Virus genome (UHGV): UHGV-1430915
DNA: 64,000 nucleotides
Source: a virus
Direction: 5' to 3' (one strand)
A program made the position numbers and the translations under genes. The notes under the pieces were generated by a model that was not told the origin of the DNA, searched no databases, and saw nothing but the letters and a program-made list of their open reading frames with translations. Positions 30,071-62,883 of the stretch are shown here, in pieces; positions within the stretch are counted from its first letter, which is position 1, and every line of letters begins with the position of its first letter.

Positions 30071-30085
30071 GAGAGGATGTTATTT

Positions 30086-30606: not shown

Positions 30607-30607
30607 T

Positions 30608-30841: not shown

Positions 30842-30857
30842 CAAAAAGGAGAGAGCC

Positions 30858-31549: not shown

Positions 31550-31551
31550 TC

Positions 31552-32118: not shown

Positions 32119-32173
32119 AAGTGGGATATAAGGTGTTCATGCACCTACCAACAATACAACAAGAGAGACTGAA

Positions 32174-32449
32174 ATGACGAAAGAAGAAGCTGACGTATTA
32201 GATTTTGCACTGGAGGCTACGCAAGAGGCTCTGGTGTTAGCTTGGAAAATGAACCAGCGTGCTGCAGAATGCAACCGCCGAATCAATGAGATTCTAGGCA
32301 TGTCTATGTATGATTTCACTATGCATGCTGGAGAGATTCCTGAATTAACTGCAGAGATGAATGATCTTGACAATAAGATTAATATCATTCTGAAGACAGC
32401 AGAAACAACTCACCAAACCGCCCGTAAATTTATCAACGAGAAGGTGTGA
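32174..32449 (+). CDS. hypothetical protein (91 aa)
   Basis: ORF track. Confidence 0.45.
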   Translation: MTKEEADVLDFALEATQEALVLAWKMNQRAAECNRRINEILGMSMYDFTMHAGEIPELTAEMNDLDNKINIILKTAETTHQTARKFINEKV

Positions 32450-32916: not shown

Positions 32917-32920
32917 GAGC

Positions 32921-33091
32921 CATGAGGCGAAGATATCATTACCTGATGTGGAAGTTATATCAAAATGCTGCCAAAGCCTATCATATCATGTTTGGCAATG
33001 ACGATCACTACATCATGTTACATCTCACCGCTATTGAGCATCACAATGAGTGGATTCATGCAATCGTGGCAGGTGATAAAGACTTTAAGTA
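32921..33091 (+). CDS. candidate small ORF (56 aa, MRRRYHYLMWKLYQNAAKAYHIMF...)
   Basis: Fills the gap between neighbouring plus-strand genes, GGAG upstream; below the ORF-track cutoff. Confidence 0.25.
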
Positions 33092-33142
33092 AAATATACC
33101 TCAAAAACGTATAGTGCGGCTTTCTAGATGGAGACTGATTAA

Positions 33143-33523
33143 ATGTGCAAGTGTAAATCCTACAATTGGAAAGTGAAAGGTGCCAAGCACCAAAATGTTA
33201 TCGTTGATGTGCCTAAAAAGCTCCGTGACGGCAAAAAACGTGTGTGCCTTGATAAGTGCATGGCTAAGCCTGTCATGAGTCTATGGGCGGCGGGATTGAA
33301 AACTCTAAACTGCTGCTGTGGTCATAACAAAGATGTTCCAAGTATCATTATCCCAGAAGATGCAGACCCTAAAGCTTATGCCAAAATACTGACCCGCTAC
33401 CCCAGCACCTTCCTGATCGGAAAATGGTGTCACGATGAACTTCAATGGTGGGTAGCATACGGTAGTATAGGTACTGCTTTTGGCTTCCCAGCTTTGTCAG
33501 AGCGCTATGTCAAAGTGTCATAA
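33143..33523 (+). CDS. hypothetical cysteine-rich protein (126 aa)
   Basis: ORF track; clusters CKCK, CLDKC, CCCGH suggest metal binding. Confidence 0.45.
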   Translation: MCKCKSYNWKVKGAKHQNVIVDVPKKLRDGKKRVCLDKCMAKPVMSLWAAGLKTLNCCCGHNKDVPSIIIPEDADPKAYAKILTRYPSTFLIGKWCHDELQWWVAYGSIGTAFGFPALSERYVKVS

Positions 33524-33627
33524 TAGAATTTAAGGCCTCAAACGAGGCCTGTGCCTTCATAAATTTCCCCACCCTGTGCGATTGCCTTCCTGAATAAAAT
33601 ACCCTCTCAGATCTCTTAAAATTAAGC

Positions 33628-33656
33628 TTGACACCAACACCAGATCTATATATAAT
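33628..33656 (+). promoter_or_regulatory. perfect-consensus sigma70 promoter, rightward (TTGACA-17-TATAAT)
   Basis: TTGACA at 33628-33633, 17-nt spacer, TATAAT at 33651-33656, after a hairpin AGGCCTCAAACGAGGCCT at 33533-33550. Confidence 0.65.
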
Positions 33657-33684
33657 TCTCACCAACCAAACAGAGGAGATCGTC

Positions 33685-34092
33685 ATGGATAATCTTGCAG
33701 ATGTAAATGTCGAAATTGTTAAACTAAAGTTCTTGGGCTTTCGAGACCCTTATTCTTTAACAGCCATACTAATGGATACTCACTTCACACCAGGTAAAGA
33801 GTACACTGCCTTCCGTTATATTTGCGGAGATCACGAATCGGCTTATAGTGTGAATACAAACCTCGGCGAGGGATATTTCATCAGAGATATCACAGATCAC
33901 TTGTGGGGTATGTGGGAGTTGGTGGGGGAAGAGAATAAATCCCTTCCTAAAGAGATTTGGGTGCACACCTTCCACACAGGCAAGTTTGGAGGTACGGAAC
34001 ATAAGTCTATCCACTATGATGAAGAAAGTGCCATCAAGCAACAAGCTGTGCTTGGTGGATCTGTAGAAAAATTTGTTAAATGCGAGGACTGA
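33685..34092 (+). CDS. hypothetical protein (135 aa from MDNLADVNVE...)
   Basis: Start moved to ATG at 33685 (SD GAGGAG) downstream of the 33628-33656 promoter; the track ORF start at 33628 would overlap the promoter. Confidence 0.5.
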   Translation: MDNLADVNVEIVKLKFLGFRDPYSLTAILMDTHFTPGKEYTAFRYICGDHESAYSVNTNLGEGYFIRDITDHLWGMWELVGEENKSLPKEIWVHTFHTGKFGGTEHKSIHYDEESAIKQQAVLGGSVEKFVKCED

Positions 34093-45174: not shown

Positions 45175-47247
45175 TTATGAGAAGTCTGGCGGAACAACAT
45201 CTTCTACATACCCTTTTAGAGCAACCTGCCCCATGTGCAGAACGGTAGAATCTCTGGCGGTAACAGTGATGCTGTCAGACATTACTTGCGGGTATGCCCA
45301 CACATACTGTTTTACCTCAGGGTATCTGTACTCTATAGTTGCCATGTTTCCGCAAATACATCTCCATAAAAATTCTTGGTAATTCCTGGTTGGGTCGTAG
45401 CCATATACCGGAGCAAGCTCTTTGCTAGGAACGAACCCTGCAAGGTATTGTATTTCAGACGGCTTCCAACCTAACTTAACGATAGGTATGTTTACAGACT
45501 CTTTTGCCTTTTCAATACCTCCCTGCATCACCCAATCGTAGCACTCAGTGCAGAAGAAATCAAGAGCACCTGCTTCCTTTTTATATTGGTCAGCAAGGTT
45601 CAGTTTTTGCGTAAGCTCGGTTTCCATAATGGTGGGGAAAAACAGTAAAGCTGTCATCTGAGCCGATGCAGCGTGTGCTTTTATTGCCTTTGAAATAGCT
45701 GCAATACGAGCGCCAAGCTTACCACGACAAAATGCTACATACTTGTCATAAACACCGCCAGTTTTAGGATCGTCAATAGTCCCAATGTCTAGTGCATATT
45801 CACCAGTCTCATCATAAAACGCCTGCTTTGTAGGGTAGTCATAAATACAAGGCTTACGAGTATCGGTATTGAACCACCACCACGGTTCACCAATCTGCAT
45901 AATCACTGGCAGGTTGTTTCTCATAGCGGCTGATGCAAAATTCTTAAATACTGCAGTAAGGAAATTCATACCCTCTTCAATGGTTGGAGACAGGAGGTAA
46001 CTACAAGGTGTATAGCCTGTTTTAGCATAGTTATCGTTCCAGTCTCTCTGGGTCCATTCCAACGGACAGGCATCGCTATAAAGCTCAAAGCTTACAGACT
46101 GCATAACGTCGAAGTCATGTCGTTTGGCATTGTACATAAAATCATCATGCCATTTATAAGCTGCAGCGTTTAGAGCCCCTGTTTTGTTTATAGACCATTG
46201 GGTTCCTGACCATGTGTAGTCATAATAATGGCTCATACCAACATAATGATTTATGGTTCCGGTATAGCCCAGACGCTTGATATTGCTCAACACCCTTAAA
46301 GGGGATACGTTCCACATATCGTCATATGCTGTGCAGATCCCGACGTCGTGCTCTTTCACCTGGATATTGTTAAGTTGCATCATTTTCCAGCCTGTGTCCG
46401 GCTGAAGCAGATCTAGACGCAGCTCACACTCTACATTTTCCGTTCTTGGGTCTGTGCTATTACTTACCCAATCTTTAGGCATAAGCGGTATTAAAATCCT
46501 TCTCACCTGCCGAGGATCAACACCCATCATGTTGTTGTTCTGGTCCATCCCGACGCAGTCCTCGAAATCAATATGAATTTCTGCAACATTCTTATCCTCT
46601 GAGATGCTGACAGCATATTGAGCTAAAGGAACATAGATGATTGTACCATCAACAAGGTCTACAGTCATAATCATCTTTTCAGGGGTGGAGAAGTTGCTGG
46701 CATTGGTTATTGACATTCTGAACCAAAGCTTGGTGTTTCTCATCTCGTAGTGATCATCAAATCCAATGCCGAAATGGTCATACTTGTCAACTGTTTCCCA
46801 AATGCACCCAGCCATGCCTCCATATGTTCTTGACACTAAACGGTTAATACAGCAGTTATTATCCGCAACAATACAGGTGCTTTCAGTCTGCTGTGTGGTT
46901 GTAACCCAGTATCTTGGGTGAAACATTCTCTCCTCAACTGTATCCCAAGATATTCTGTCAAGATTCTCATCTGAAACTATTGTACATTTCGCTCTTTGTG
47001 TTCCAATCATAACCCCTTGGGAGTTTGATGAAAACTCCATAAAGAAGCTCCTTGGCAACCTGTTTGGCAATTTGTCAACAATTTCTACAGGGATCTCGAT
47101 ACTGGTTGCCCCAACCGGGATAGTTACATCGCCCTCAACATGATCATAATCCCTACCCGGAACTGCAGTATCCTGAACTGTGCGGTAATGAAACCGTGCA
47201 GCCATTGTAGAGTAATCACGGTAAGGTTTAAAAACAGCTGTTGCCAT
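45175..47247 (-). CDS. tail fibre/baseplate-associated structural protein (690 aa)
   Basis: Position downstream of the Baseplate_J-like and gpI-like genes; ATGA overlap with the upstream gene. Confidence 0.45.
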   Translation of the reverse strand: MATAVFKPYRDYSTMAARFHYRTVQDTAVPGRDYDHVEGDVTIPVGATSIEIPVEIVDKLPNRLPRSFFMEFSSNSQGVMIGTQRAKCTIVSDENLDRISWDTVEERMFHPRYWVTTTQQTESTCIVADNNCCINRLVSRTYGGMAGCIWETVDKYDHFGIGFDDHYEMRNTKLWFRMSITNASNFSTPEKMIMTVDLVDGTIIYVPLAQYAVSISEDKNVAEIHIDFEDCVGMDQNNNMMGVDPRQVRRILIPLMPKDWVSNSTDPRTENVECELRLDLLQPDTGWKMMQLNNIQVKEHDVGICTAYDDMWNVSPLRVLSNIKRLGYTGTINHYVGMSHYYDYTWSGTQWSINKTGALNAAAYKWHDDFMYNAKRHDFDVMQSVSFELYSDACPLEWTQRDWNDNYAKTGYTPCSYLLSPTIEEGMNFLTAVFKNFASAAMRNNLPVIMQIGEPWWWFNTDTRKPCIYDYPTKQAFYDETGEYALDIGTIDDPKTGGVYDKYVAFCRGKLGARIAAISKAIKAHAASAQMTALLFFPTIMETELTQKLNLADQYKKEAGALDFFCTECYDWVMQGGIEKAKESVNIPIVKLGWKPSEIQYLAGFVPSKELAPVYGYDPTRNYQEFLWRCICGNMATIEYRYPEVKQYVWAYPQVMSDSITVTARDSTVLHMGQVALKGYVEDVVPPDFS

Positions 47248-49540: not shown

Positions 49541-52500
49541 TTAGTCGTGAGACTCGTTCCAAGGTCCTTGGAAACTAGAGTTTGAACGACTTACTACAAC
49601 GGTAGGACAGGATATTGTGATGCCTGTCACGTTCCCTGTTGACCATGGCGTGTAAATTTCAACGATAATGTCTATGGTTTGTTCTCCAAGGCCTGTTATT
49701 CCGATAGCGCACATACCATCATTGTCGTTTCCGTACTTCTTACCAGCAAGGAGCTGATGACCAGCTATCCACGCATTCAGTTGAGAGTTGGCACGCGTAC
49801 CGTTCAGTTTAAAGAAGAATGTTACGTTCTTACCTTGGCCTTGCACGTTGTCCACATATCTCCACCTCCAACGGCAAACCCTTTGCTGGGAGTTATATAC
49901 TGGAGCACAATCTCCGTAAGTCCTGTGTGCAACAATCGCACCTTCGAACTGGTTAGCACGGATAACGGAAGCTTCTACACGTCCACGGAATGTACCTCCT
50001 GTTGCATCTATGGTGCCTCTAAAGCTACCATTATTGGCATAAACATCCCCACGGAAAGTGCCACTGGTAGCGTTAACTGCCCCTGTGAAGTTACCTGCAC
50101 TAGCGTTGATGTTACCTTTCACCCACACATCCATAAACTGGGCGTGTCCGTTCTTGTTAATATACCAACCGTATTTATGGTACCCGTTGCCATCGTAGTT
50201 GTTAGACGAAATTTCTTGTGCAATCTTGGCAGAAGAGATCGTCCCGTTCTCTATAAAAGCATCTTTCAAGAACGCTTGGTTGTTCTTGATTGCGAAAGCA
50301 AGGGTTGCTGTTCCATTTCCGGGGTTGTATACCGCAAAGTTGTTTGCACTAACCATGAAGTATGATTGAACTTGGCCTCCAGAGCCTTCCATGCCCAATT
50401 GGATACCTGCCACATACTTATTCCCTGCAGAGTCTACCTGTATTTTTGTGCCCCATTGAGCATTTACTTTGCCCTCTAAGTCTGTCACAGCCTTAGATGT
50501 TGTAGCTACTGCAGCTCTAAGCTCTGACACATCACCGACATCATCAATGATCTCCTGCTTAGCAACAGCAAGTTCTTGACGAATAGCTGACGCTGTGCCG
50601 TTAATAAGATCCACGGTTGCTTTGTTGGTATCGGAGATTGTAGCGTCCAGTGCTGTTTTTGTGGAGGTCAGCTTACCATCCAAATCCTTAATCGCCTGTT
50701 TGTTGGTAGAAATTTCTCCACGTGCAGAAGTTATCTGCTCCGACAGTGCAGAGGTTTTCTGATTCAACAAATCTGTGGTGGCCTTGTTGGTATTGGCAAT
50801 CAAGGTATTGAGATCAGTTTTTGCGGTAGTTATCTTACCATCAAGGGTGGTATAGTTCTTAGATACCGTAGCGTTTGTCTGACTGATCTTTTGATCCAGA
50901 GTTTCAGATGTCCTGTTGAGAAGATCCACTGTCGCCTGGTTGGTGCTTAAGATGCTTGCATCAAGTTCCGTTCTCTGGGTATTGATCTTGCCATCTAGAG
51001 TTTTATCTCCGGCAAGGTATCCGCTCTCCACACCACTTATTTGTTCTACCAACTCCCCTTTGGCTGCAACCAATTTCTCGTCTAAAGCCTCTGTCTTTTT
51101 GTTCAGAAGATCAGTGGTTGCTTTATTGGTTGTCTCGATCAGGGATGCCAGTCTTCCACTTTCAGTGTTCAGATCGTTGGTGAACTTGTTCTGTGCAGCA
51201 ACAAGTTTCCTATCCAGAGCTGTGATATTACCATTGACATCCTCAAACTTCTGAGTTGTCTCTGTAACTACCGCACCTATCCTATCTCCAAGTTGTTGGA
51301 ATGCCTCATCTACCCTTCCGTCCATGTACTTGTTAAGCTCTGTGACACGATTTTCAACCTCCTCGATAGAGGAATCTAAAGTGCTCATCAACTCTTTATA
51401 AGTTTCTGTCTTTTTAAATTCAGCATCTATCTGAGGCATCAAATCTTCAATAGAGGTGTAGCAGCGTGCAGCGCATTCTACAAACTGAGAACTACCAAAA
51501 GCGTTTGTGGTTCGAATATACCAATAATAAATCTTATCGTTCTGCAGACCTTCAGATGTCCAAGTTGAACCAACACCCATACGGGTAGCTTTTGAAGTAA
51601 CGGTTGCATCACTTGTGTCCGGCAACCTTGTCATACCAGATGTCCAAAAATCATACTGGGTGCTTACACTTGCTAAGTCCCTGCTGTGCGGAATCAAGGT
51701 GATAGCAAAGTATCCCTGCTTAACTTCTACAGAAACAGGAGCTTCAGGTGCTTGAATGTTGAACTCGCAGTAGGCTTCTGGAGATACACCACCCTTATAA
51801 GATGTTGCAGCCACGGTTGCTGTGTATGACCCTTTGGTCAATCCTTCTACGCGGACAAACTGCTCGACTGTTTGTGCTGTCCAAATAATCTCTCCGTTCT
51901 TTCTTACCTGCACAATATTTTGAGCATAAGTTCCAACGTTGTCCCAAGCCAAAACACCATGAGTTACTTCCCCAGCTTGAAGAACAGAGTATCTGAAGTT
52001 TTGCGGTTGAGCTACACCGGACGGGGATATCGGAATATCCACATCTCCAGAATCCGGAAGTTGCCCTGTGGCATCATTCCACTCTTTAGCATCTTGACGG
52101 AGTTTTACCTTGACACCGCCCTTTTTGGTGAACTCCCATTCAAGAACCCTCATTTCTTGGCCCACTATACCAATACTTGGAAGGTCCATCGTAACGTAAC
52201 GCCCAGGCTTAAATTTAAAACCCCGCATATTGCAGGTTACTTCAATAATCCTGCCAGCTCTGGCACGTCTTAAGAATATTGCGGAAACACGCTGAGCCTG
52301 ATAAGGACTGGTAACAAAACGATAATCTATATCAATTATCTTTCTTTCTCCGTCCTTCTCTACCCATTCAGGTACGAACACCGACGGGAAGTCTGTTTCA
52401 GAATACCCTTTGGTTGGACTGGTGAATCTTCCGGTTATTGTGTTTGATCTTTTGTCGAAGGAGGCTTCAGGATAGATCTTAACCTCACCGCAAACACAGT

Positions 52501-53392
52501 CCTCACTCAGTGTCATTGTTGCCGGGCCATAGTATGCACCTACCAGCAGACCATATTTGCCAGCCACATAGCTAAGGTCTGCACCACAAGCCTTCAGCAT
52601 CTCTGCCATAATACTTGCTGGTGCTTCGTCCATGTCGAACTCGCCATTAATGGTGTAACGGCGCTCACTGGTTCCGTCCGCGTTTTTTACAGCCTCGTCG
52701 CATATGTTGGCAGCTTCCTTGAAGGACTCCCAGTTGATGGTTTCGTCAGGACATTTAAGGTACGTTCTTAGATAGTCCAGAATCACCAAGGCAGCGTTAT
52801 TGGTATACACCTCTTTACTGATACGAGGATCATAACATTTTTTACCAACCTTGACGAGTGTAACGTTTGGCAACCCAAAAGGAAACTTGTTAGGGTCAAA
52901 CTTAAAGCTGGCACGTAGCCAACTGATCCCTCTACCTATCATGTCTGGTGACCACGAAGGGCAGTGTGTGCCCATGAAAGGATCAGAGGTTTTTCTGTCG
53001 TTATGTAGCTCCCAAGATACCAAATCCCCATATGAGGAAATAGGATTACCGTCGATAAGTATATCTTCTACACCTTCCAGAGGATGATTGGCAAGAACAA
53101 TAGCACAATGAAGGGTTCTGTCCCTGTCCTGCTCCAAAAACGCAAGCAATCCAGATGTGCGTGTCTTCCCATACACTACAGAGCAAGGTGCAGCAGAAGA
53201 TCTGAGAAGCTTTTGTCTATCTTGCTGACTTCTGTAAGATTTGTTACCTTCGAAAATCTTATCCAGGGTTCTGGTGGTAACAGTGTTCAGGCTGTCAGCC
53301 AGAGCTGCCTTGGATGCGTTCCAGTCATAGCTCGAAGATCTTGCAGAAGCAACGATGTTATCAATCATTGCAATTGGCATTAATACCTCCAA
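49541..53392 (-). CDS. central tail fibre/host-specificity protein (lambda gpJ-like), 1283 aa
   Basis: Long central coiled-coil heptad repeat region (ATTDLLN.KT.ALD.KL...) and a C-terminal segment (SYFMVSANNFAVYNP...AFLKDAFIENGTISSAKI) resembling the conserved J-protein tail. Confidence 0.55.
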   Translation of the reverse strand: MEVLMPIAMIDNIVASARSSSYDWNASKAALADSLNTVTTRTLDKIFEGNKSYRSQQDRQKLLRSSAAPCSVVYGKTRTSGLLAFLEQDRDRTLHCAIVLANHPLEGVEDILIDGNPISSYGDLVSWELHNDRKTSDPFMGTHCPSWSPDMIGRGISWLRASFKFDPNKFPFGLPNVTLVKVGKKCYDPRISKEVYTNNAALVILDYLRTYLKCPDETINWESFKEAANICDEAVKNADGTSERRYTINGEFDMDEAPASIMAEMLKACGADLSYVAGKYGLLVGAYYGPATMTLSEDCVCGEVKIYPEASFDKRSNTITGRFTSPTKGYSETDFPSVFVPEWVEKDGERKIIDIDYRFVTSPYQAQRVSAIFLRRARAGRIIEVTCNMRGFKFKPGRYVTMDLPSIGIVGQEMRVLEWEFTKKGGVKVKLRQDAKEWNDATGQLPDSGDVDIPISPSGVAQPQNFRYSVLQAGEVTHGVLAWDNVGTYAQNIVQVRKNGEIIWTAQTVEQFVRVEGLTKGSYTATVAATSYKGGVSPEAYCEFNIQAPEAPVSVEVKQGYFAITLIPHSRDLASVSTQYDFWTSGMTRLPDTSDATVTSKATRMGVGSTWTSEGLQNDKIYYWYIRTTNAFGSSQFVECAARCYTSIEDLMPQIDAEFKKTETYKELMSTLDSSIEEVENRVTELNKYMDGRVDEAFQQLGDRIGAVVTETTQKFEDVNGNITALDRKLVAAQNKFTNDLNTESGRLASLIETTNKATTDLLNKKTEALDEKLVAAKGELVEQISGVESGYLAGDKTLDGKINTQRTELDASILSTNQATVDLLNRTSETLDQKISQTNATVSKNYTTLDGKITTAKTDLNTLIANTNKATTDLLNQKTSALSEQITSARGEISTNKQAIKDLDGKLTSTKTALDATISDTNKATVDLINGTASAIRQELAVAKQEIIDDVGDVSELRAAVATTSKAVTDLEGKVNAQWGTKIQVDSAGNKYVAGIQLGMEGSGGQVQSYFMVSANNFAVYNPGNGTATLAFAIKNNQAFLKDAFIENGTISSAKIAQEISSNNYDGNGYHKYGWYINKNGHAQFMDVWVKGNINASAGNFTGAVNATSGTFRGDVYANNGSFRGTIDATGGTFRGRVEASVIRANQFEGAIVAHRTYGDCAPVYNSQQRVCRWRWRYVDNVQGQGKNVTFFFKLNGTRANSQLNAWIAGHQLLAGKKYGNDNDGMCAIGITGLGEQTIDIIVEIYTPWSTGNVTGITISCPTVVVSRSNSSFQGPWNESHD

Positions 53393-53817
53393 ACATCAAC
53401 AACGATAGAGTCTTTCATGTCGAACATAAAGATCCCCTTATCACCTTTCGCCCAAATCTGGTTGTTCCAGAACACACCCGCGGTGAGCCCGTTCAGACCT
53501 TCGAAAATAACAATATCGCCACGCTGAACCTGTTTAGGAGTATCCAGTCGAGTCAAAAAGAGATCAAAAATAGTAGGCAGGTGGGTGGTTTTGAAACGGA
53601 GCATGCACCATCTCTTGCTTTCCAACTCTGTTTTATACGTTCCTTCAAAGTTAGAAAGAAAATCTGTTCCATATTGGGCATCAACACATTTAGCCGCAAA
53701 AGTGCAACAATCGTGGAATCCCCATTCAAACTGGACGGTAGCTTCTTCGTCAAACACTTTCCACAATCTTTCTTGCCAGTCTACTAAACGAGGGTGTGTG
53801 CTCATTAAACCTCCCAA
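53380..53817 (-). CDS. tail-tip protein, possible NlpC/P60-like (gpK-like) fold
   Basis: FEWGFHDCCTFAAKCV and RGDIVIFEG segments resemble the NlpC/P60 Cys region; position upstream of the J-like gene. Confidence 0.3.
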   Translation of the reverse strand: MGGLMSTHPRLVDWQERLWKVFDEEATVQFEWGFHDCCTFAAKCVDAQYGTDFLSNFEGTYKTELESKRWCMLRFKTTHLPTIFDLFLTRLDTPKQVQRGDIVIFEGLNGLTAGVFWNNQIWAKGDKGIFMFDMKDSIVVDVWRY

Positions 53818-54371
53818 ATGATCGGGCGGCTTGCCACCTGATCCACATATTTAAAAAATCTGTCATTATCGTTTCTTGAGCTATGGCTCTCCTCTGTGTA
53901 TCGATAAGGAAAACCTCTTAACCAGCTGTTGAAGATGGAAGATATGGATATGGACAAAGCACTATTCTCCCCTGTCTGAATAGCCATGTCTGTTATAAGG
54001 CCGTCAAACAAGCCATTGGTTGTAACAGGTAAACCATTCTCCATAGCTGTGATATACAACGTGGCACGACAACCCGAATACTCTGTCTTCAGCAGATCAC
54101 CTACATACTTGGGATCAAATCCGTTCAATGTTGCTACCACAGATCCGAAGTTGGTGGCATCTTTCTCAGAAACAGCAGTCAATGTTGCTGATCCACCTAT
54201 CCCTATAAAATGTTGCCCCTCAATCACCACAACACCAGTTCCTGAGCACACCCTGACAGTCCCTGTTGGTAGCTCTAGCTTTGCAGCAATTAAGATCTCA
54301 ACACTATCAAGCTCCAGCTTTTCAAGAAATAAATTATCTAATGGCGCTCTAATCATCTTAGAAATCCTCAA
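53805..54371 (-). CDS. minor tail protein (188 aa)
   Basis: Position in the tail-tip operon; overlapping stop/start with neighbours. Confidence 0.4.
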   Translation of the reverse strand: MRISKMIRAPLDNLFLEKLELDSVEILIAAKLELPTGTVRVCSGTGVVVIEGQHFIGIGGSATLTAVSEKDATNFGSVVATLNGFDPKYVGDLLKTEYSGCRATLYITAMENGLPVTTNGLFDGLITDMAIQTGENSALSISISSIFNSWLRGFPYRYTEESHSSRNDNDRFFKYVDQVASRPIIWEV

Positions 54372-54948
54372 AGAAGTTGATAACTATATTATCACCTTTT
54401 TGCATAGCATCGACTTTTTGCTTAATTTTATAAATATCTCTGATATGAAACCTACCCTTTGGGGATTGAGTTATTATCTTCATAGTGTCCCCTGCGGCAA
54501 TAGGTTTTCTAAGTCTTGGAGATATGCTTATAACAGCAGACCCAACACCATCGCTGCGCACTGGAGCTGTTACCACTTTCAATTCATCGTTAACAGATAT
54601 TTTATCCCCAGCTCTGGCTATGTCTCTGTTTGGCTCCCATCCGACCGTCTTCAAAAAATCGTCGTTACCAGTAGGCCCAAGGGCGATTGGCTCATTATCT
54701 GTTACTGAGTGACCGTACGTTTTAATAAGAAAAATGTTCCCGTCTTTATACACCTGATCAACAAAGCTCTTAAGCTCTAGCAACTGTGACTCGCTGATAT
54801 TGGAAACCGTCAAAGTGCCTTTCCAGTTAGGTGTGGCATAGGTCACTTTTTGCGTTTTACCTGTAAACGGACTTTTAAACGTAACAATATCTGCCAGCAG
54901 CTCCAATCTAATATCTGGAAGGTATCTAGGCCTTTCCCATAAAAACAT
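54358..54948 (-). CDS. minor tail/distal tail protein (196 aa)
   Basis: Position in the tail-tip operon, first gene after the terminator at 55012-55040. Confidence 0.4.
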   Translation of the reverse strand: MFLWERPRYLPDIRLELLADIVTFKSPFTGKTQKVTYATPNWKGTLTVSNISESQLLELKSFVDQVYKDGNIFLIKTYGHSVTDNEPIALGPTGNDDFLKTVGWEPNRDIARAGDKISVNDELKVVTAPVRSDGVGSAVISISPRLRKPIAAGDTMKIITQSPKGRFHIRDIYKIKQKVDAMQKGDNIVINFFEDF

Positions 54949-55047: not shown

Positions 55048-58000
55048 TTACTTCAGTTTCTCTTGCAACCCAGTAACAACATCTGTCAATTTTTTAACCT
55101 GCTCCTCAAGGGCGGTTATTTTATCGTCTTGTTCCCTGCAAACCTGGACAAGCAAGCCTGTTACAGCTGCGTAGTCAACGTTATAGAACCTTTCTTCTGT
55201 TATCAAAGGAGTTCCATCTTGATCAGGGTTTGGGATTTCCTTCCTTTTCACGAAAGACCCTACTGCCTCTGGCAATGCTTCCATGACCTCTTGAGCAATT
55301 ACCCCCGCGTGAGGCATACCATTCTCTTTTAAAGTGTAGGTATAGCCCTTCATCTTACGGATAGCTTCCAGCGCGTTAGGAATAACCTCTATATTGTCCT
55401 TCAGGTCTCTATCAGAGCTCTGGCTCACAGTGGTGCACTCTACTACACCGTTGACAGCAAAATATCTTGACTTAGCCTCGTCTGACCTAGTGCCACAGTG
55501 GAATACCCAGCTAGAAGATGCAGCGTTGTCGTTTACCTGAAACTCAAGCACGTTCTTCCTGTCTGCGTTACCCCAATAGAACATTCTGCCTGTATTGGTA
55601 GGTAAGTTATCGGCGTTGCTAGAAAGACTATTAGCACCGACATGAATTTCCAGTTGATTACTGGTTTCACCAAAAGTGTAATTAGGTCTTAACTGAATGC
55701 CTTTACCAGCATCGTGTCTCCATTCTTCCCAAGTAAAGACATCGCCAACGTAGTTACCAGCACGAGTATATCTGTCACCAAAATAGGTGATATATTCCTG
55801 CACACAACCTTGAGGTCTGTTAGCTGTGTTTTTGTAAACAAGCAGTGTACCAGCGTACGGAGCAGGGTAGTGGCGATCTATTACAAGTGCGTCAGCGTTT
55901 GAACCTTGGTGATAGAAACCTTCACGGCTACCATCGTAGGCATTAAGGTCTTCTGTCCCCAGACCTTGACCACGGTGCTGAATAACTTTGTTCCACGCCC
56001 TGTGGTTACCACCCTCAATAGATCTGGTGTATAACTGATCAAGGCGACCAGCCATTTGGAAGGCATAGTTTCCAGAAAACGCCACAGACAACCCACCAAC
56101 AACCATCGAACCTTCTGGTCCGTTGACGTTGCCAGCCATTATTTTTGACGGGTTATTAGGTCCGAACTGGTTGTTCCAGTCTCTACCAGTATGACATACA
56201 AAACCACCTGGGGCTGAGAAAGTACCATCTTTGTTGAAGTTGTAGAATCTATGAGCTGTTCCCACAACATCTCGAACAATAACTTGACCAGCTTCTGGAG
56301 TAGACCTGAACTCTGCTTGGCCTTTAAGGCCAGCACCATTACCACATTTAGAGGTAAACGTGCCGTTAGTTAGATCCTCTGTTCCGTCAGATGCACACTG
56401 GAATCCCGCGTTAGAGAATAATGCCTTTCTAGGACCGCCGTAGCACAAATAGTCAAGACCGTCTGCCCACAGCTCGACTTTAGGCATGTTCGTTTTGCTC
56501 ATCACTGCATAGCGTTCAGGAGTCCCCAGGTAGTGCCACATAGTTCCACCACCAGTGTAGAAACCTGATGTTCCTTTGAACTCAACCAGAGGTCTGGTGT
56601 TTGTTACATCATCACCTTTGATTGCAAGACTCAAATCTGCAGATTCCAGAGGAGCACAGAACTTGACACCATCTTGGTTACCTGTCACGTTGCCTACTTG
56701 CCAATCAACCTCCCTGGTTGACACTTCTATTACAGTAGCGCCAGCATATACTGTAACAGGGAATGCACGTGCCTCTACATAGAATGCAACATACTCCTGC
56801 TTACCTCTGGTTGGAGACACACATCCGAGGATTGCTCTCTCGTTTTGGTAGAAATTAATAACCCCTTGGAAAGAATCACCTCTGTCTGTCCAGCCACCAG
56901 TTCTGTAGTGACACTGTAGTGTAGCACAGTTCATTGGGTCGCCGCCAGAAGAAGATCTGGTGACAATGGTTAAATCTGTCCCGATAGTTGCTGCAAAGTT
57001 GGGGTCAGTTCTGACGATAATAGGATAATACTTACCGTCCTGCATAGCTGCAGTTCTAGGCAGGTTTACATATGGTCTAGCGCCTGCTGCCAGAGGGATT
57101 CTGAATTGTGCTTGAGCATCCCCTACAGTCCTGGCACTGGTACCACCACAAGCTATCGGTAGTGGTTCCCATTTGGCTTTCCGGTTGTTATAAACACCCC
57201 ACTCAAGCGTCCCTTCACCTTGCTCGTCCATACCGCCATCCCAGATGACCATCTTGGCGGCTTTCTTAGATCCCCAGAAACCTCTTTCTGCTCCTGAACT
57301 GCGGATCCATTCTCCAAGTCCCCAGTTTGCCAGCTGACCGTTCAGATCACCAACCTGCATATATTTAGGACAATCTAAGACCCCATCCTCACGGAAGCCT
57401 AAATATCTATGAGTTTCAGATCCTTTTGCACCTTTGTGCAGGTGGATTGTTAACCACGCCTTATTGTCGTTTCTTACCTCGGAATAGATCCTATACCCAT
57501 GCTCAAGGACACCGTCAGCACTGTATTTGTCCCCGTTAACAATGCCAGATGCCGACTTGACATCAGCAGAGCTTTGAGATAGGTAAAGGTGTCCGAAGGT
57601 AGGAGAATTCCTAGACCCAAGACCGATGTGCGATCTAAAGGTCTCATCGTTACGAGGTCTGACCATCGGCTGCCATGCAGTCCACTGGTTTGTGTTGGCC
57701 TGATAGGTTCTCAAATACCAAACATCTACGTTAGAGAATGGGTAGTATTCCTGACGACAGCCTGTGCCGCCGTTAGCATTGTTCTGCCAAACAATTAGGT
57801 GACCCGCACCAGAACCCGCAGGGTAACCATTTGCCTCAGTTGCATTAGCAGTCATCGGCTGGTAGTATACACCATCCTGATTACCAGTCAGGTTATTGAT
57901 ATTGAAATTTGCCTCAAGGGCTGCACGTTGCTTATAGAAAGCTCCTAAGTTAATGCGTGCACCTGCGGCATCTTTGGCCCCTGTACCACCCTGCTCTATA

Positions 58001-58854
58001 GCAAGAGGCTGCCACGAGGCTGTTTGTTGGTTCCACATACCCCAACGGCCTGTTGCATCAAGCTGCAAGTACCCTGCTGTGTTTACATCATCCCCAGCAC
58101 GGATAACTGTTCTTGTTGGATTATTTGCCTCCAGGCGTTTAAATTCGTCACGAAGTGCTATTCTTTTTGTTGTTACCACACCGTTGGTTACTGCAATGGT
58201 ATACATGGCTCCGGAAGTAGCGCCACGGAAAATACCATCAACAGTTGTAGTATCACGACGAGATACCACACCGTTCAGAAATTTTTCACCAGCTGCTACG
58301 GAAGGATAGTTAGTGGTTCTTCCCTCTTCAATAACTGCAGGGCCAACAAAGTTGACAAGGTGAACAACATCACCTACAGTATGCACTGTGCCAAAATCTA
58401 CCCGCTGCGCAAGTGCTTTAGCATCATTGGCTGTCTTAACCGTAACATCCATTACATCCTGGACAGACTGCCCTTCGGCTGTCATAATCATAGACGCACC
58501 AATGGTAGACTCCAGCTCCTCCCTTAAGGACGGGTCTGTATACACCATCCAGGCAGCGTCAGTAATCCCACCGTCAGAGTATGGTGAAGACAGTGCAGGA
58601 ACAGTGTGTGGAAATTCGCCTTTCCAACGCAGGTAGAGGTCTTCCTCTTCGAAGTAGGCAAAATCCATTGGGCCGTTTAACTTACCACCTTCCTTAAAGG
58701 AGATTACATGAGAAACAGTCCCATCCACATGGACAACATCGCCAATTTTCACACGACGGGTCAGGTCTGGTTGTTGAACAACCAGGTAATCATCCTCTGT
58801 CACTGCGGTAGTGGCAGGAAGAGATTCAATTCTGACAACTTTAATATCAGCCAT
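55048..58854 (-). CDS. L-shaped-type tail fibre with C-terminal intramolecular chaperone (peptidase S74-like) domain
   Basis: C-terminal ~120 aa begins SDRDLKDNIEVIPNALEAIRKMKGYTY...AGVIAQEV and ends in a coiled-coil, matching the self-cleaving chaperone domain of T5 pb1/endosialidase-type fibres; N-terminus homologous to 61489..62157. Confidence 0.7.
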   Translation of the reverse strand: MADIKVVRIESLPATTAVTEDDYLVVQQPDLTRRVKIGDVVHVDGTVSHVISFKEGGKLNGPMDFAYFEEEDLYLRWKGEFPHTVPALSSPYSDGGITDAAWMVYTDPSLREELESTIGASMIMTAEGQSVQDVMDVTVKTANDAKALAQRVDFGTVHTVGDVVHLVNFVGPAVIEEGRTTNYPSVAAGEKFLNGVVSRRDTTTVDGIFRGATSGAMYTIAVTNGVVTTKRIALRDEFKRLEANNPTRTVIRAGDDVNTAGYLQLDATGRWGMWNQQTASWQPLAIEQGGTGAKDAAGARINLGAFYKQRAALEANFNINNLTGNQDGVYYQPMTANATEANGYPAGSGAGHLIVWQNNANGGTGCRQEYYPFSNVDVWYLRTYQANTNQWTAWQPMVRPRNDETFRSHIGLGSRNSPTFGHLYLSQSSADVKSASGIVNGDKYSADGVLEHGYRIYSEVRNDNKAWLTIHLHKGAKGSETHRYLGFREDGVLDCPKYMQVGDLNGQLANWGLGEWIRSSGAERGFWGSKKAAKMVIWDGGMDEQGEGTLEWGVYNNRKAKWEPLPIACGGTSARTVGDAQAQFRIPLAAGARPYVNLPRTAAMQDGKYYPIIVRTDPNFAATIGTDLTIVTRSSSGGDPMNCATLQCHYRTGGWTDRGDSFQGVINFYQNERAILGCVSPTRGKQEYVAFYVEARAFPVTVYAGATVIEVSTREVDWQVGNVTGNQDGVKFCAPLESADLSLAIKGDDVTNTRPLVEFKGTSGFYTGGGTMWHYLGTPERYAVMSKTNMPKVELWADGLDYLCYGGPRKALFSNAGFQCASDGTEDLTNGTFTSKCGNGAGLKGQAEFRSTPEAGQVIVRDVVGTAHRFYNFNKDGTFSAPGGFVCHTGRDWNNQFGPNNPSKIMAGNVNGPEGSMVVGGLSVAFSGNYAFQMAGRLDQLYTRSIEGGNHRAWNKVIQHRGQGLGTEDLNAYDGSREGFYHQGSNADALVIDRHYPAPYAGTLLVYKNTANRPQGCVQEYITYFGDRYTRAGNYVGDVFTWEEWRHDAGKGIQLRPNYTFGETSNQLEIHVGANSLSSNADNLPTNTGRMFYWGNADRKNVLEFQVNDNAASSSWVFHCGTRSDEAKSRYFAVNGVVECTTVSQSSDRDLKDNIEVIPNALEAIRKMKGYTYTLKENGMPHAGVIAQEVMEALPEAVGSFVKRKEIPNPDQDGTPLITEERFYNVDYAAVTGLLVQVCREQDDKITALEEQVKKLTDVVTGLQEKLK

Positions 58855-58889
58855 TCTTTCTCCTGAAAGGGGGCAAACAGCCCCCTATG

Positions 58890-61487
58890 TTAAAGGTACA
58901 ATCCACGGTATTGAGCATAAAGGCCCAGACCGCGAAGGATTTCGCCAGAGTGATAGCCTACCGGATCAGAAACTGCCCAGCAGCCATTTAAAACATTATC
59001 CCCATTAATAAAGTGGTGCTTTTGCAGTAGCTTCATACAGGCTTCTACAACAATATCTATTTGGGGTATTGTTTCTGAATACCCGCACAGACCTAGCCAG
59101 CAGCAACCTGCAAGCCATTCACCTACCACCCACATCCTATCTCCTCTATCTTGATAAGAGTATCCACCAGAGGTGTTAAAGTCTGTAGGCAAATTTCCTG
59201 AATGGGATGACTGGAATCTGTTGAGGAACCATGCCCATTTCTGGCAGAACAGGAATAGTCTTTCATCAACAGGCTCTTTATGTTTCTTGAGCTCATATAT
59301 TGTGCGGCACGCAGCAACAAAAGATCTTGACTGGAGTTTAGAGTTATCTACCATCTCCCACCAACCAGTCAACCCTTCATTACCTCTCTGCCATACATAA
59401 CGTGAGGCAACTGGACCCTCTGTCTTAAATGTATTGTTATACCAGACTTGAGAGTCATACAGAAAGCCTATTGTATTTGACAATCTATGGCGGTCTATGT
59501 TTTCTGCACCCATGCAGTAGACTGCTGGGTATTGCATACCAGGATAGGGCCAACTTGGCCTTTCCTCTAAGAGATAATTTTCCTTATCTATCACCTTTCC
59601 GGCAGGGAACACACCGGGAGTGTGCCTGTATGCACCTTGCTTGTAGTTTCTGACATAACAATCGCCAACCTTAGCGGTTGATTCTGTCTTGCTTGCCATC
59701 CATACACTAAACCAGATCAGGTAAGCATCCCTATCAGCAATATAAAATTGCGGCAGTGTGTTGACGCAATACAGATCAAACAAGCCATTTCCTATCTGCC
59801 TGTCGCTCAGACTGAAATCTACAGAGGTGATCCCTTTGGTGTTAGCAAAGAAAGGTTTAATCTCCTCTTCGGTGTGATGAGGTTGTGTAGGGTCTAGTTT
59901 AAAATCTCCCAGAGTAAGAGTTTCTGTTATCCATTGTCCATTAGTGGCATATAGATCAGCATACCATAACCAACGGTCTTTGTCAAGAAATTTGACCCTT
60001 ACCATCTCATCATCTGATCGATAAGTCACTGAGTTTAAAGAAATCTCTCTTCCAAAATTGAAAGTTACTTTGCCTTTTACTATATTGCAACGGGTGAAGT
60101 TGTCAGAGTGGTTGTAAATGTCGGTATCATACTGCATACTAACACTAGCGCCACCGCTTACGGCAATGTTTTCCTCTTTTGGCAAGAGATATGGGTTACC
60201 GTCTTTACCAACCACCTCTACAAAATCAGTAACCTTGGCAACTGTTTCTGTTACCTCTGCTCCTCCAAAAGGGACACCTATTCTGTACTGTTTTTTGTTA
60301 TTGTTGCCATCATTAAGGATGAAATGTGGCTGGAACAGAACCCCTTCTCCTCCTAAATTCATAACAATTTCAGCATCTCTGCCTACTTTGTATGTAGTCC
60401 CTTTTTGGATTATTTCGCAAGGCTGACGAGCGTTCATTCTAAAATTGATATACCCGTCACTGTCCCTGCTCATGACAGGAACTGTTCCTGCGACGAGACA
60501 AGTACCATCCGTGAACGGTGCCTTAATCAACGTAGTCTTTCTGAACAGCTTGTCGTAGGCGTTTATATCGCTGAAATTAAGCAACTTATTGTAAGACTGT
60601 TTAAACGCGGTGTAATACTTTTCCTCGCCTGTTAAGGTATAGAGTTGATAACAAGCGTCACACCACATCTCTTCCCCGTCTAACTCTGGGGCTTGATTGT
60701 CTGCAACCACGTTTATAGGATTTACAATTACAGGGGATCCAGCAGGTATCACCGATCCGCCTTGCTCTTGAGGCAATCTCACACAATAGGTAACCTTGTG
60801 GTTGCCTGTAACGCCCTTATCTTGCAGTTGGATTGTGCCGAACTCTGCAGACGTATGACCACTGTCGGCTATGCTACCGTTGGCCCAATAGCGGTTACCA
60901 TCCCATGCTATATACCACTCAACCCACCAACTTAATCCGGAAGTTGTCCAATTAGGATTAACATCTGTGCCGCCGTAAACATCAGAGTCTACCGTGTTTC
61001 TTCCTAAAACACCGTTATACGCCTGAAAAGCCTTGTCCAAGTATTCTCCCCATGTCGGGGATCCTGCTGGGATTTTTCCTCTACCTTTGTTAAAAGACAC
61101 AACCACATCTTTAAACCCACCATGTGATGGAACACCATCTGTGGATAACGGGTAGTGGGATAATCTTTGCATTTTACTTTCTACTGCATATACGCCCAGA
61201 AGATGACTGTTGTAGGCTTCCCAAGCCTCTTTGGCCCTATCTAAATAAAAATCACTTTTTGATGCCCTGTATGCCTCAATGTATCCCAGAATCAACACAG
61301 CTTGGGACTCATGCATTGCCCAATCATTATTTATCTTACTTCCTGACCAACCTGACGCTATAAGTCCATCCTGGTTTACCAGTTTGTTCTGTGTAGGGAG
61401 GTTGGTAATACCTGTGTTGTTATCGAGGCACTTCCTGTGCCCCTCGATCATCTGAAATACGTTATCAATGTTGTGTTGAATACGCAT
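58890..61487 (-). CDS. large virion structural protein (865 aa), function unknown
   Basis: Position between fibre genes; aromatic-rich. Confidence 0.45.
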   Translation of the reverse strand: MRIQHNIDNVFQMIEGHRKCLDNNTGITNLPTQNKLVNQDGLIASGWSGSKINNDWAMHESQAVLILGYIEAYRASKSDFYLDRAKEAWEAYNSHLLGVYAVESKMQRLSHYPLSTDGVPSHGGFKDVVVSFNKGRGKIPAGSPTWGEYLDKAFQAYNGVLGRNTVDSDVYGGTDVNPNWTTSGLSWWVEWYIAWDGNRYWANGSIADSGHTSAEFGTIQLQDKGVTGNHKVTYCVRLPQEQGGSVIPAGSPVIVNPINVVADNQAPELDGEEMWCDACYQLYTLTGEEKYYTAFKQSYNKLLNFSDINAYDKLFRKTTLIKAPFTDGTCLVAGTVPVMSRDSDGYINFRMNARQPCEIIQKGTTYKVGRDAEIVMNLGGEGVLFQPHFILNDGNNNKKQYRIGVPFGGAEVTETVAKVTDFVEVVGKDGNPYLLPKEENIAVSGGASVSMQYDTDIYNHSDNFTRCNIVKGKVTFNFGREISLNSVTYRSDDEMVRVKFLDKDRWLWYADLYATNGQWITETLTLGDFKLDPTQPHHTEEEIKPFFANTKGITSVDFSLSDRQIGNGLFDLYCVNTLPQFYIADRDAYLIWFSVWMASKTESTAKVGDCYVRNYKQGAYRHTPGVFPAGKVIDKENYLLEERPSWPYPGMQYPAVYCMGAENIDRHRLSNTIGFLYDSQVWYNNTFKTEGPVASRYVWQRGNEGLTGWWEMVDNSKLQSRSFVAACRTIYELKKHKEPVDERLFLFCQKWAWFLNRFQSSHSGNLPTDFNTSGGYSYQDRGDRMWVVGEWLAGCCWLGLCGYSETIPQIDIVVEACMKLLQKHHFINGDNVLNGCWAVSDPVGYHSGEILRGLGLYAQYRGLYL

Positions 61488-61488
61488 C

Positions 61489-62157
61489 TTAGATAGCTCC
61501 TGCGATGATCAGTGCCCCGTACCAAGTTAGTCCATTATCATATGTTTCCAACTTGAAAATGTCTGTTGCACCAGCTGTAAATGTTAGGATAGGATCTCTT
61601 CCGTAGGCCCATTTAACATTGTCAGGCCAATAAACTTTGTTACCACCAGAGGTCTGCGTTATGCATACAGTTATAGTTCTTGCCACTCCGTCGAGCCCTT
61701 CTGTTTGATTTTCAAAAGAGATTGTGGTGTTTGAAGTGAGCCGAACTTTAAACGTGTCTGCAACGTCAAGATCCATGTCAAGTTGACCACCAATAGAGCC
61801 GTAATCAACTATCCTACCTGAAGAAGTTGCAGCAAGCTCTCCAAAAACAGACCATGCTTTTGCAGACACACCTCCGGCACCCTCTACAGTGGAATCTGGG
61901 AGGATTATTTTAGGATAATCTCCATTCCATGTGTAGTAGCGCTTAGTTTCCGGATCATAAGCAAAATCCTTCTTGCTCTTAAGATAGCCGCCCTCTGTGA
62001 AATAAACTATTTTAGTAATGCTAAGATCATTGACAACATCATCAATCTTAGCCTTTCTTGTCCCGTCAGTCTGGTTGACAACCAAGAAGTCATCACTCAA
62101 GACTGTTTCTGCATCTTCAAGATCTGGGATTGGTATTGTAGGATAAGCTACAGCCAT
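61489..62157 (-). CDS. tail fibre-related protein sharing the N-terminal anchor domain of the L-shaped fibre
   Basis: MAVAYPTIPIPDLEDAETVLSDDFLVVNQTDGTRKAKIDDVV aligns with MADIKVVRIESLPATTAVTEDDYLVVQQPDLTRRVKIGDVV of 55048..58854. Confidence 0.5.
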   Translation of the reverse strand: MAVAYPTIPIPDLEDAETVLSDDFLVVNQTDGTRKAKIDDVVNDLSITKIVYFTEGGYLKSKKDFAYDPETKRYYTWNGDYPKIILPDSTVEGAGGVSAKAWSVFGELAATSSGRIVDYGSIGGQLDMDLDVADTFKVRLTSNTTISFENQTEGLDGVARTITVCITQTSGGNKVYWPDNVKWAYGRDPILTFTAGATDIFKLETYDNGLTWYGALIIAGAI

Positions 62158-62166
62158 GATTTCTCC

Positions 62167-62883
62167 TTAGTTAACATCAATAGCACGACCAGACTGGTTG
62201 GCAATAGCCTCATCATTAGAGGTAGCAATAACACCAGAATATTCGCGCTCATCTGGAGCAAGCGTCCAGGTATTGCGGTTAATGGTTTGTTCTGCATCAG
62301 TCATCAGCAGGTCTTTATCCTGAGTCAACAGAGAACCTACAGGGATCGGGTTTTCCATCTCAGGACCAGCATACTGGTTCCACCATGTAGCATCCCCGGT
62401 TCTAGGCAATCTGAAGTTGATCAGGTAGTACAGTTTATTAGCCCACTTAATCCAACCTTCATCATCACACAGAGAGGTTGCCCCGTCATCAGGCTGTGGG
62501 TAGGTAAACTGATCAAGACCTACGAAAGCCAGTCTTACAATCTCGTTCTCCTTGGTAACAACCTCAAAGAACGCTTGGTATGTTCTCGATCTTCGATCCA
62601 TAGTAGACTGGAAGTTTATGATGTTTAGCACATCTGGCTCTTGTCTTGCCACTTCCATAATCTTGTTATCAAGAACAGTCTTCATGACCTTCTTACTGAG
62701 AAAGTCCATATAGGGGAAGCCAAACAACTCATCAAAGTACCAGCTCCCCTTCCAGGTATTAAACCTCATCCACAGGCGCTGGCGCAGACTTACCTGGTTT
62801 GAATCTATCAACTCAAGACCTTTGTCTATCGCCAAATCACCTGTCTGTGGGTCCATCAATATATCACTATAAAGCGTAGCCAT
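62167..62883 (-). CDS. hypothetical structural protein (238 aa)
   Basis: ORF track; position in the structural operon. Confidence 0.45.
   Translation of the reverse strand: MATLYSDILMDPQTGDLAIDKGLELIDSNQVSLRQRLWMRFNTWKGSWYFDELFGFPYMDFLSKKVMKTVLDNKIMEVARQEPDVLNIINFQSTMDRRSRTYQAFFEVVTKENEIVRLAFVGLDQFTYPQPDDGATSLCDDEGWIKWANKLYYLINFRLPRTGDATWWNQYAGPEMENPIPVGSLLTQDKDLLMTDAEQTINRNTWTLAPDEREYSGVIATSNDEAIANQSGRAIDVN

Follow-up and report, generated by a model that had tools for sequence, protein, structure and literature searches.

Why should two proteins of one phage tail, a long fibre and a much smaller product encoded close by, begin with the same kind of N-terminal module? This question is raised by the virus genome UHGV-1430915, of which a stretch of 64,000 nucleotides (referred to below as the window) was analysed. 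A 7.1-kb region of its minus strand contains three open reading frames (ORFs), encoding (i) a long tail fibre of 1268 amino acids (aa), (ii) an 865-aa protein and (iii) a 222-aa protein. The first and the last of these are related at their N-termini, and an earlier note on this DNA had proposed that they compete for or share one virion attachment site, or that they represent modular variants of a fibre. The analysis described here points to another solution, in which the 222-aa protein most likely acts as an adaptor that mounts the neighbouring, anchor-less and putatively sugar-cleaving 865-aa enzyme on the tail.

A phage database search revealed that the region shares 97% DNA identity with Escherichia phage EI-SP-GF and approximately 90-93% with many other rV5-like myoviruses (Vequintavirus); 116 records span at least 80% of the query. 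Judged by its sequence, the window belongs to an rV5-like myovirus, a phage type of E. coli. Since length, order and domain positions agree (rV5 gp43 is composed of 222 aa and gp41 of 1272 aa), the ORFs for the 1268-, 865- and 222-aa proteins correspond to gp41, gp42 and gp43 of rV5, respectively, and mass spectrometry of rV5 virions detected all three of these proteins (PMC3606486). Among the listed rV5-like phages the fibre is conserved at 84-99% protein sequence identity, and the enzyme and the adaptor at 96-99%. In phage Bas59 of the BASEL collection, the best-annotated relative, the three genes are located in the baseplate operon, where they directly follow the genes for the central spike and one baseplate protein, and carry the labels "sialidase domain protein", "lateral tail fiber protein with glycosidase domains" and "lateral tail fiber protein". 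In the window, a gene for a 238-aa sheath-initiator-like protein adjoins the trio on its upstream side, in synteny with Bas59, PaulScherrer, phi92 and 4MG, which places the trio inside a baseplate operon.

The homology of approximately 100 N-terminal residues of the fibre and the 222-aa protein, for which the earlier note had set an alignment as the test, was clearly recovered. BLASTP aligned aa 7-105 of the fibre with aa 8-105 of the 222-aa protein (38% identity, E 3e-18), and the Pfam domain PF18668 (Tail_spike_N; cutoff 25) was recognized in both proteins, with 40.8 bits in the fibre (aa 46-103) and 40.4 bits in the 222-aa protein (aa 51-104). A six-frame search of the whole window disclosed no further paralogue of the anchor, the module being confined to these two genes. 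The fibre anchor also matches the N-modules of solved tailspikes (9occ (gp13), 9d84, 4qnl, TSP1, TSP3 and TSP4 of phage CBA120, and gp63.1 of phage G7C), as well as the N-termini of phi92 gp140 and gp143 and of the colanidase of 4MG. Both proteins begin with a genuine module of the virion-anchor type. Because of its N-terminal position, its recurring pairing with a sibling fibre and the mass spectrometry of virions (PMC3606486), this module probably serves in attachment, either to the virion or to another fibre. A tailspike-like ("P22-like") N-terminus of rV5 gp43 was noted as early as 2013 (PMC3606486).

The function of the 222-aa protein is suggested by its other half. An exhaustive HMMER search retrieved 3,191 relatives. 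Of the best 150, 134 match only the C-terminal module (C-module; aa ~110-222), which ends no more than 15 residues from the C-terminus in 112 of the 134 and is carried mostly by small proteins (median 267 aa). A further 12 match only the N-module, which is always N-terminal and occurs in proteins of 110-1481 aa. The two halves therefore act as modules independent of each other. No Pfam family covers the C-module, and a profile of it gave no match when compared with PDB sequences.

A total of 14 foreign genomes were inspected for the gene context of the cassette: three contigs found via distant enzyme homologues, nine phages found via the C-module (the phi92-like PaulScherrer, the jumbo phage 121Q, SE131, Rosemountvirus zoltan, Vibrio phage D509, Erwinia phage Fifi318, the N4-like Philippe, the T7-like ISAO8 and Roseobacter phage CRP-603), and phi92 and 4MG. 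In all 14, the gene for the C-module protein is placed directly upstream of a gene encoding 900-1170 aa, typically with an overlap of a few bases and with a gap of at most 12 nucleotides (nt); in the window, the distance between the adaptor stop codon and the ATG of the enzyme gene is 1 nt. The downstream gene encodes a full-length enzyme homologue in 13 of the 14 contexts (phmmer E 1e-34 to 1e-163), namely in 11 of the 12 contexts sampled first and in both phi92 and 4MG. Among 50,697 phage genomes, 527 records contained the enzyme and 525 the C-module (approximately 1%), the respective counts being 243 and 240 for phages of Escherichia, 101 and 99 for Salmonella, 62 and 58 for Vibrio, 33 and 33 for Erwinia, 23 and 23 for Campylobacter and 12 and 12 for Cronobacter. 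Wherever both are listed, their coordinates are adjacent. Natural fusions of adaptor and enzyme were absent from the 160 proteins retrieved. Because its C-module is tied genome-wide to the family of the 865-aa protein, the 222-aa protein is best read as the adaptor of this enzyme, and the two genes together form a cassette that is mobile across myo-, podo- and jumbo phages. In phages of the Atoyac group, related to ISAO8, this "tail fiber plus glycosidase" gene pair has been described as variable and as a likely determinant of host range (PMC7857530).

Approximately 18-25 GenBank records of "Campylobacter phage" (MG0656xx, host C. jejuni) encode proteins 85-97% identical to those of rV5- and phi92-like phages of E. 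coli, and the attribution of these records to C. jejuni looks doubtful.

The earlier note had left the 865-aa protein unassigned. This still holds at the level of Pfam, where it has no match, and of PDB sequences, among which it has no relative; by fold and gene context the protein can now be assigned. In an AlphaFold model built from 8 sequences, most helical blocks and a central β-domain have predicted local distance difference test (pLDDT) values of about 80-93. The helices at ~59-95, 269-306 and 663-860 form a predicted (α/α)6 barrel, interrupted at ~110-265 and 330-615 by β-rich insertions resembling carbohydrate-binding modules; Foldseek matched the inserted β-domain to such modules. A profile of 12 enzyme sequences weakly touches the helical hairpins of epimerases and of GH76 (E 0.003-0.2), and GH76 is the best Pfam match of one homologue (E 0.005, below the cutoff). 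The 12 aligned homologues retain invariant acidic residues, e.g. E60, D270, D502 and D609. The alignment depth was limited by the word-indexed homologue searches, which gave 4-7 matches each. From these results, we conclude that the 865-aa protein is probably a glycan-active (α/α)6-barrel enzyme with β-insertions. It is a homologue of gp141 of phi92 (PMC7229145), with 35% identity to the phi92-like group, in which the C-module shows 41% identity to that of the adaptor.

An N-terminal anchor is present in none of the enzyme homologues tested, all of which begin at a common conserved N-terminal helix, located at aa 2-22 of the enzyme. A longer PHROG profile had hinted at an anchor fused to the enzyme N-terminus. 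This candidate was rejected, as the proteins concerned (P0004, P0005 and P0011) have their additional residues internally or at the C-terminus.

The N-terminal halves of the adaptors vary among phages and the C-module remains constant. In several phages the adaptor N-terminus matches that of another tail protein of the same phage: (i) in phi92, aa 9-46 of gp140 match aa 5-42 of the endosialidase gp143, which is "fibre I" in cryo-electron microscopy (cryo-EM) (39% identity, E 2e-6), (ii) in 4MG, aa 1-103 match the adjacent colanidase spike (47%, E 4e-28), (iii) in Fifi318 and contig L004, the first ~140 aa match a 502-aa proximal fibre subunit (31-32%, E 5e-14), (iv) in a metagenomic phage (L003), the first 41 aa match a 1493-aa long fibre bearing an S74 domain (56%, E 1e-11), and (v) in SE131 and Vibrio phage D509, the N-terminal part matches a small protein encoded downstream of the enzyme (51%, E 5e-8 and 27%, E 4e-7, respectively). 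The fibre gene of the metagenomic phage is located just downstream of the enzyme gene, so that the three-gene architecture of the window is repeated in an unrelated phage. In ISAO8, a T7-like podovirus, the N-half of the adaptor is PF03906, the N-terminal, tail-binding domain of the T7 tail fibre (above the cutoff), and the 12-kb region inspected holds no annotated fibre gene besides the adaptor. The phi92 gp140 protein consists of a leading peptide of ~40 aa and the C-module, without the PF18668 domain. As gp140 retains the peptide alone, this peptide, with the consensus "MAD..T[IV]K[IV]SDLP..T.V...D[FY][LF]V..Q.D.T[RK]K", is the minimal shared element.

At 12085-17921 of the metagenomic phage (L003), the gene for the S74-bearing fibre (Phage_fiber_2 and Gp34_trimer domains) is followed by two genes for Gp38-type adhesins, which combines a self-cleaving chaperone with tip adhesins in the style of T-even phages.

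Unrelated as the fibre bodies are (a T5-like fibre, an endosialidase, a colanidase), the match between adaptor and fibre anchors persists, an argument for one kind of attachment site that is required by both proteins. Most simply, the adaptor would attach to the type of site used by the resident fibre, and a moving cassette would acquire the anchor of that fibre. The part of the earlier proposal that concerned a shared attachment site thus gains support from the recurring matches in phi92, 4MG, the Erwinia phage and the metagenomic phage, whereas the idea of a free competitor does not, the linkage to the enzyme being better explained by an adaptor. A free rival or a variant of the fibre is a poorer description of the 222-aa protein, given a C-module tied to the enzyme across genomes and the coexistence of all three proteins in rV5 virions.

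If the 222-aa protein and the long fibre did vie for a single baseplate site, each site or virion would bear only one of the two, and the resulting particles would be heterogeneous, as in a bet-hedging strategy. Homologous anchors, and a pairing that is conserved across lineages, are what an identical receptor site on the baseplate wedge would lead one to expect. Both proteins were nevertheless detected in rV5 virions together with the enzyme (PMC3606486), an observation that leaves room for partial competition for a site. Moreover, cryo-EM of phi92 and of Bas49 and Bas54 shows several distinct sets of fibres per wedge with six-fold occupancy, and fibre II of phi92 joins the base of fibre I and does not replace it (PMC13450770, PMC12143355); an anchor identity of 38% also fits paralogous but distinct sites. 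We therefore regard such competition as decidedly improbable.

It is somewhat less improbable, but still unlikely, that the fibre is branched, the adaptor with its enzyme docking on the N-terminal region of the long fibre, or the reverse, through the homologous N-modules. Such a fibre would be comparable to the TSP1-4 complex of CBA120 or to the LtfA/LtfB fibres of the T5-like phage DT57C. N-modules of the PF18668 type do occur in tailspikes that form branched complexes (the PDB matches to CBA120 TSP1, TSP3 and TSP4 and to G7C gp63.1), and fibres of this class touch other baseplate fibres with their proximal domains, according to the RBPseg study (PMC12143355). Two phages speak against such an arrangement: the ISAO8 adaptor bears a T7 tail-binding domain, and the 12 kb inspected there hold no annotated second fibre from which to branch, and phi92 gp140 lacks PF18668 and has the ~40-aa peptide alone.

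The long fibre itself is, by its sequence, a mosaic of three parts: the N-terminal anchor, a body of the T5 L-shaped-fibre type and an S74 chaperone. In a tblastn search of the 50,697 phage genomes, aa 168-1263 were found to share 33% identity with the "long tail fiber" of NBSal005 (E 1e-137), and vB_Sen_I1, HASG4 and the ltfp protein of Bf23 matched as well; overall, the body shares 32-34% identity with T5-like fibres over ~1,000-1,100 aa. The matches to T5-like fibres start at aa ~168-271; no T5-type N-terminal attachment region was found in this search, and aa 1-134 match the anchors of myovirus spikes instead. A counterpart of aa 1 to ~134 forms the N-terminus of otherwise unrelated spikes in related myoviruses, for example the colanic-acid-degrading spikes of 4MG, EspYZU12 and GEC_vB_MG and the 624-aa lateral fibre of the phi92-like PaulScherrer. 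Some Vequintavirus alleles align over aa 1-1047 only, so the distal tip and the chaperone have been replaced there. This agrees with the reports that gp41 of LL12 lacks the S74 domain (PMC7229145) and that a lectin-like head occupies in Bas49 the position of the S74 domain of Bas54 (PMC12143355).

The description of the fibre C-terminus as a chaperone module initiated by SDRDLKDNIE proved accurate. PF13884 (Peptidase_S74) was detected at aa 1147-1198 with 60.6 bits (cutoff 22), starting at the very residue, 1147, with which this motif begins, and the dyad S1147-D-R-D-L-K1152 shows S-D-x-x-x-K spacing. The SDRDLK motif aligns with "SSDRRIK" of the solved chaperone of the phage S16 gp37 fibre (6f45; phmmer E 1.4e-5), and a weak alignment of the fibre C-terminus with the MYRF ICA domain (7dc3) was also obtained. 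The register of the fibre ("SQS/SDRDLK") is identical to that of the annotated chaperone start of the phi92 endosialidase gp143 ("INT/SDGTLK"). These features identify the C-terminal module as a bona fide S74 intramolecular chaperone with a putative Ser-Lys dyad in the canonical register. Because the register matches the start of the released domain of gp143, cleavage is predicted between S1146 and S1147, yielding a mature fibre of 1146 aa and a released fragment of 122 aa, and autoproteolysis presumably takes place in this phage as well. The S74-bearing fibre of a Vequintavirus (Bas54) has been fitted into cryo-EM density at the baseplate wedge, with no density for the peptidase domain (PMC12143355), which fits the removal of this domain. 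As S74 occurs in just one tail protein of the window, the Bas54 fibre is presumably the orthologue of the 1268-aa fibre. A chaperone domain like that of the K1F endosialidase had been noted at the C-terminus of rV5 gp41 in 2013 (PMC3606486).

Taken together, the baseplate of this phage probably carries two appendages with paralogous N-terminal anchors, a long fibre and an adaptor-mounted enzyme. In the proposed model, the anchor of the fibre (a peptide of ~45 aa plus Tail_spike_N) would be fused to a body and tip resembling the T5 L-shaped fibre; the S74 chaperone would aid folding of the trimer and then cut itself off between S1146 and S1147 by means of Ser1147 and Lys1152. The N-half of the adaptor would be an anchor of the same type, and its C-module would hold the 865-aa (α/α)6-barrel enzyme, which is anchor-less and is encoded by the downstream, translationally coupled gene. 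When such a cassette settles in a phage, its anchor may be copied from, or matched to, the resident fibre, so that enzyme and fibre would come to occupy sites of one kind. This site is presumably located on the baseplate; the sequences leave room for an identical site, for neighbouring equivalent sites and for mutual binding.

The model also bears on phi92. In a 2026 cryo-EM study of this phage, gp143 was identified as fibre I and gp147 as fibre III, and fibre II was left without a gene (PMC13450770). Because gp140 carries the ~40-aa N-terminal peptide of fibre I, the gp140-gp141 pair, equivalent to gp43-gp42 of rV5, is a tentative candidate for fibre II, which is located where fibre I has its base. 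It is conceivable, at a similarly tentative level, that the cassette can provide any tailed phage with an (α/α)6-barrel glycanase by copying the anchor of a resident fibre onto a docking module of universal use.

Several observations weigh against the adaptor model. The binding of the enzyme by the C-module is deduced from gene linkage and domain logic; the E-values for phi92, the metagenomic phage, SE131 and D509 come from small search spaces; the structure model of the adaptor is poor (pLDDT 50) and that of the enzyme moderate (pLDDT 65.5). The 14 gene contexts were chosen by ourselves from "spread" lists of matches, although the genome-wide counts back them. In one of these contexts, that of CRP-603 (L015, 4876-9005), a 471-aa protein ending in the C-module precedes a 902-aa protein that does not belong to the enzyme family (hidden Markov model E 0.07), and which may be either a very divergent cargo or a sign that the module also pairs with other partners. 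A mirror-tree/Mantel test of co-divergence between C-module and enzyme (11 pairs) gave r 0.14 and p 0.25, which is not significant; the power of the test is low, since the family is star-like, with identities of 25-35%. In some long proteins the C-module is present in 2-5 internal copies; it can therefore act as a repeat unit, too, and its role is not limited to that of a terminal dock. Proteins P0014, P0016, P0021 and P0022 (450-2036 aa), for instance, contain 3-5 internal or tandem copies.

The internal repeats, the missing co-divergence signal and the CRP-603 locus, together with a weak similarity in fold to the capsid spike of Pa223 (PMC13450770), would also be in line with the 222-aa protein being an independent small fibre, a lectin, a decoration protein or an assembly chaperone of the enzyme, the latter attaching in some other way. 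We consider this very unlikely in view of the near-perfect co-occurrence of the two genes (525 versus 527 genomes), their tight juxtaposition and the lack of an anchor in every enzyme homologue tested. A pure chaperone is further contradicted by the presence of the 222-aa protein, with its bona fide anchor, in virions (PMC3606486), and the ISAO8 region, with no other tail-fibre gene in 12 kb, suggests that the enzyme would not reach the tail in any other way. The features of the locus are listed in Table 1.

Table 1. Positions of the predicted features of the fibre-enzyme-adaptor locus in the window
Feature	Position	Strand	Basis
Long tail fibre precursor, 1268 aa, rV5 gp41 orthologue	55048..58854	-	ORF; phrog_6578 over full length; 97% DNA identity to rV5-like phages
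Fibre N-terminal anchor, aa 1 to ~135	58450..58854	-	leading ~45-aa peptide (58720-58854) plus PF18668 Tail_spike_N
Fibre shaft and receptor-binding tip, aa ~168-1146	55417..58353	-	tblastn to T5-like long tail fibres
Peptidase_S74 intramolecular chaperone/autoprotease, aa 1147-1268	55051..55416	-	PF13884; alignment with S16 6f45
Predicted catalytic Ser1147	codon 55414-55416	-	
Predicted catalytic Lys1152	codon 55399-55401	-	
Anchor-less tail enzyme, 865 aa, rV5 gp42/phi92 gp141 family	58890..61487	-	
Adaptor, 222 aa, rV5 gp43	61489..62157	-	ORF; BLASTP; Pfam
Adaptor N-terminal anchor, aa 1 to ~105	61843-62157	-	
Adaptor conserved C-terminal module, aa ~110-222	61492-61830	-	
Baseplate sheath-initiator-like protein, 238 aa (position of phi92 gp139)	62167..62883	-	phrog_4233/phrog_120; synteny

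The closest known systems are rV5 gp41/gp42/gp43 and phi92 gp143/gp141/gp140, which belong to the "Swiss army knife" baseplates of the Vequintavirinae and Stephanstirmvirinae; they are direct orthologues or homologues of the proteins described here, encoded in the same order in a baseplate operon. In the BASEL study (PMC8594841) and likewise in the 2026 cryo-EM study of phi92, the assignment of genes to individual fibres was stated to be unclear. Within the rV5 and phi92 literature, the original phi92 paper excepted, we found no description of the link between gp43 and gp42 or of the anchor shared by gp41 and gp43. The S74 chaperone on gp41 (2013) and the principle of modular, adaptor-mounted receptor-binding proteins (RBPs) are already known. 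What is new relative to the literature found is the shared anchor, and its explanation by a mobile cassette of adaptor and (α/α)6 enzyme that matches the anchor of the resident fibre.

Other systems share parts of this design. The fibre has in common with T5 pb1 and T5-like LtfA its body (aa ~170-1263) and an S74 chaperone with the SDxxxK motif, but it bears an anchor of the Tail_spike_N type and is predicted to be mounted on a myovirus baseplate, in contrast to the siphovirus collar. The chaperones of the K1F and phi92 endosialidases belong to the same Pfam family, and the dyad and released-domain start of phi92 gp143 are in the same register; there, S74 is placed on the β-propeller spike of an endosialidase, whereas here it is placed on a fibre, with cleavage being predicted. 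G7C gp66/gp63.1, gp37 of K1-5 and SP6, TSP1-4 of CBA120 and the anchor-branch RBPs of Klebsiella phages follow the same logic, a virion-binding N-terminus carrying an enzymatic RBP. Such adaptor-mounted tailspike systems likewise exchange N-modules, and those of CBA120 and G7C are members of the same Pfam family as the anchor described here. They carry a β-helix trimer, whereas the cargo in the window would be an (α/α)6 barrel, held by a small dedicated adaptor with a C-module of its own. In comparison with GH8, GH48, GH76, GH88, GH105 and the AGE superfamily, no sequence-level membership of a GH family was recognized for the 865-aa enzyme or, above the cutoff, for the homologue that touches GH76, and large β-insertions divide its predicted barrel.

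It is for their broad host range that phages of the rV5-like and phi92-like types are valued. The analysis proposes how three of their genes are wired, as a self-processing long fibre and an adaptor-mounted glycan enzyme with the same type of anchor, and supplies a candidate for fibre II of phi92. If the C-module is a portable dock, the cassette could be used in host-range engineering, with the anchor swapped to suit each chassis phage and the dock and enzyme kept. It would also improve the annotation of approximately 500 phage genomes in which these genes are now labelled "hypothetical", "tail fiber" or "sialidase domain protein".

Other parts of the window were also inspected. Positions 49541-54948 (minus strand) contain a tail-tip module in the style of lambda and siphoviruses, situated within the myovirus baseplate cluster. 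It encodes (i) a Dit-like protein of 196 aa, (ii) a 188-aa tail protein, (iii) a 145-aa DUF6950 protein and (iv) a 1283-aa J-like protein with Ig_J domains, a long coiled coil and a Phage_Tail_Tip domain. This module is absent from the corresponding loci of phi92, PaulScherrer and 4MG.

A 690-aa protein encoded at 45175-47247 (minus strand) contains Calx-beta and NCTSP_N domains together with the TIM barrel that characterizes the non-contractile tail sheath protein of the N4 type. It is a homologue of phi92 gp142 and rV5 gp34, which the BASEL study tied to the recognition of the enterobacterial common antigen. The segment 42063-45162 (minus strand) encodes a 194-aa fibre assembly chaperone of the Caudo_TAP type between two short fibres of 348 and 346 aa; in rV5, gp30 and gp33 are reported to be paralogues with 42% identity (PMC3606486). 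Finally, at ~26000-34000 both the GC skew and the AT skew change sign and the large ORFs move to the plus strand (27521-33000), which marks this part as a block of divergent transcription between two structural regions on the minus strand.

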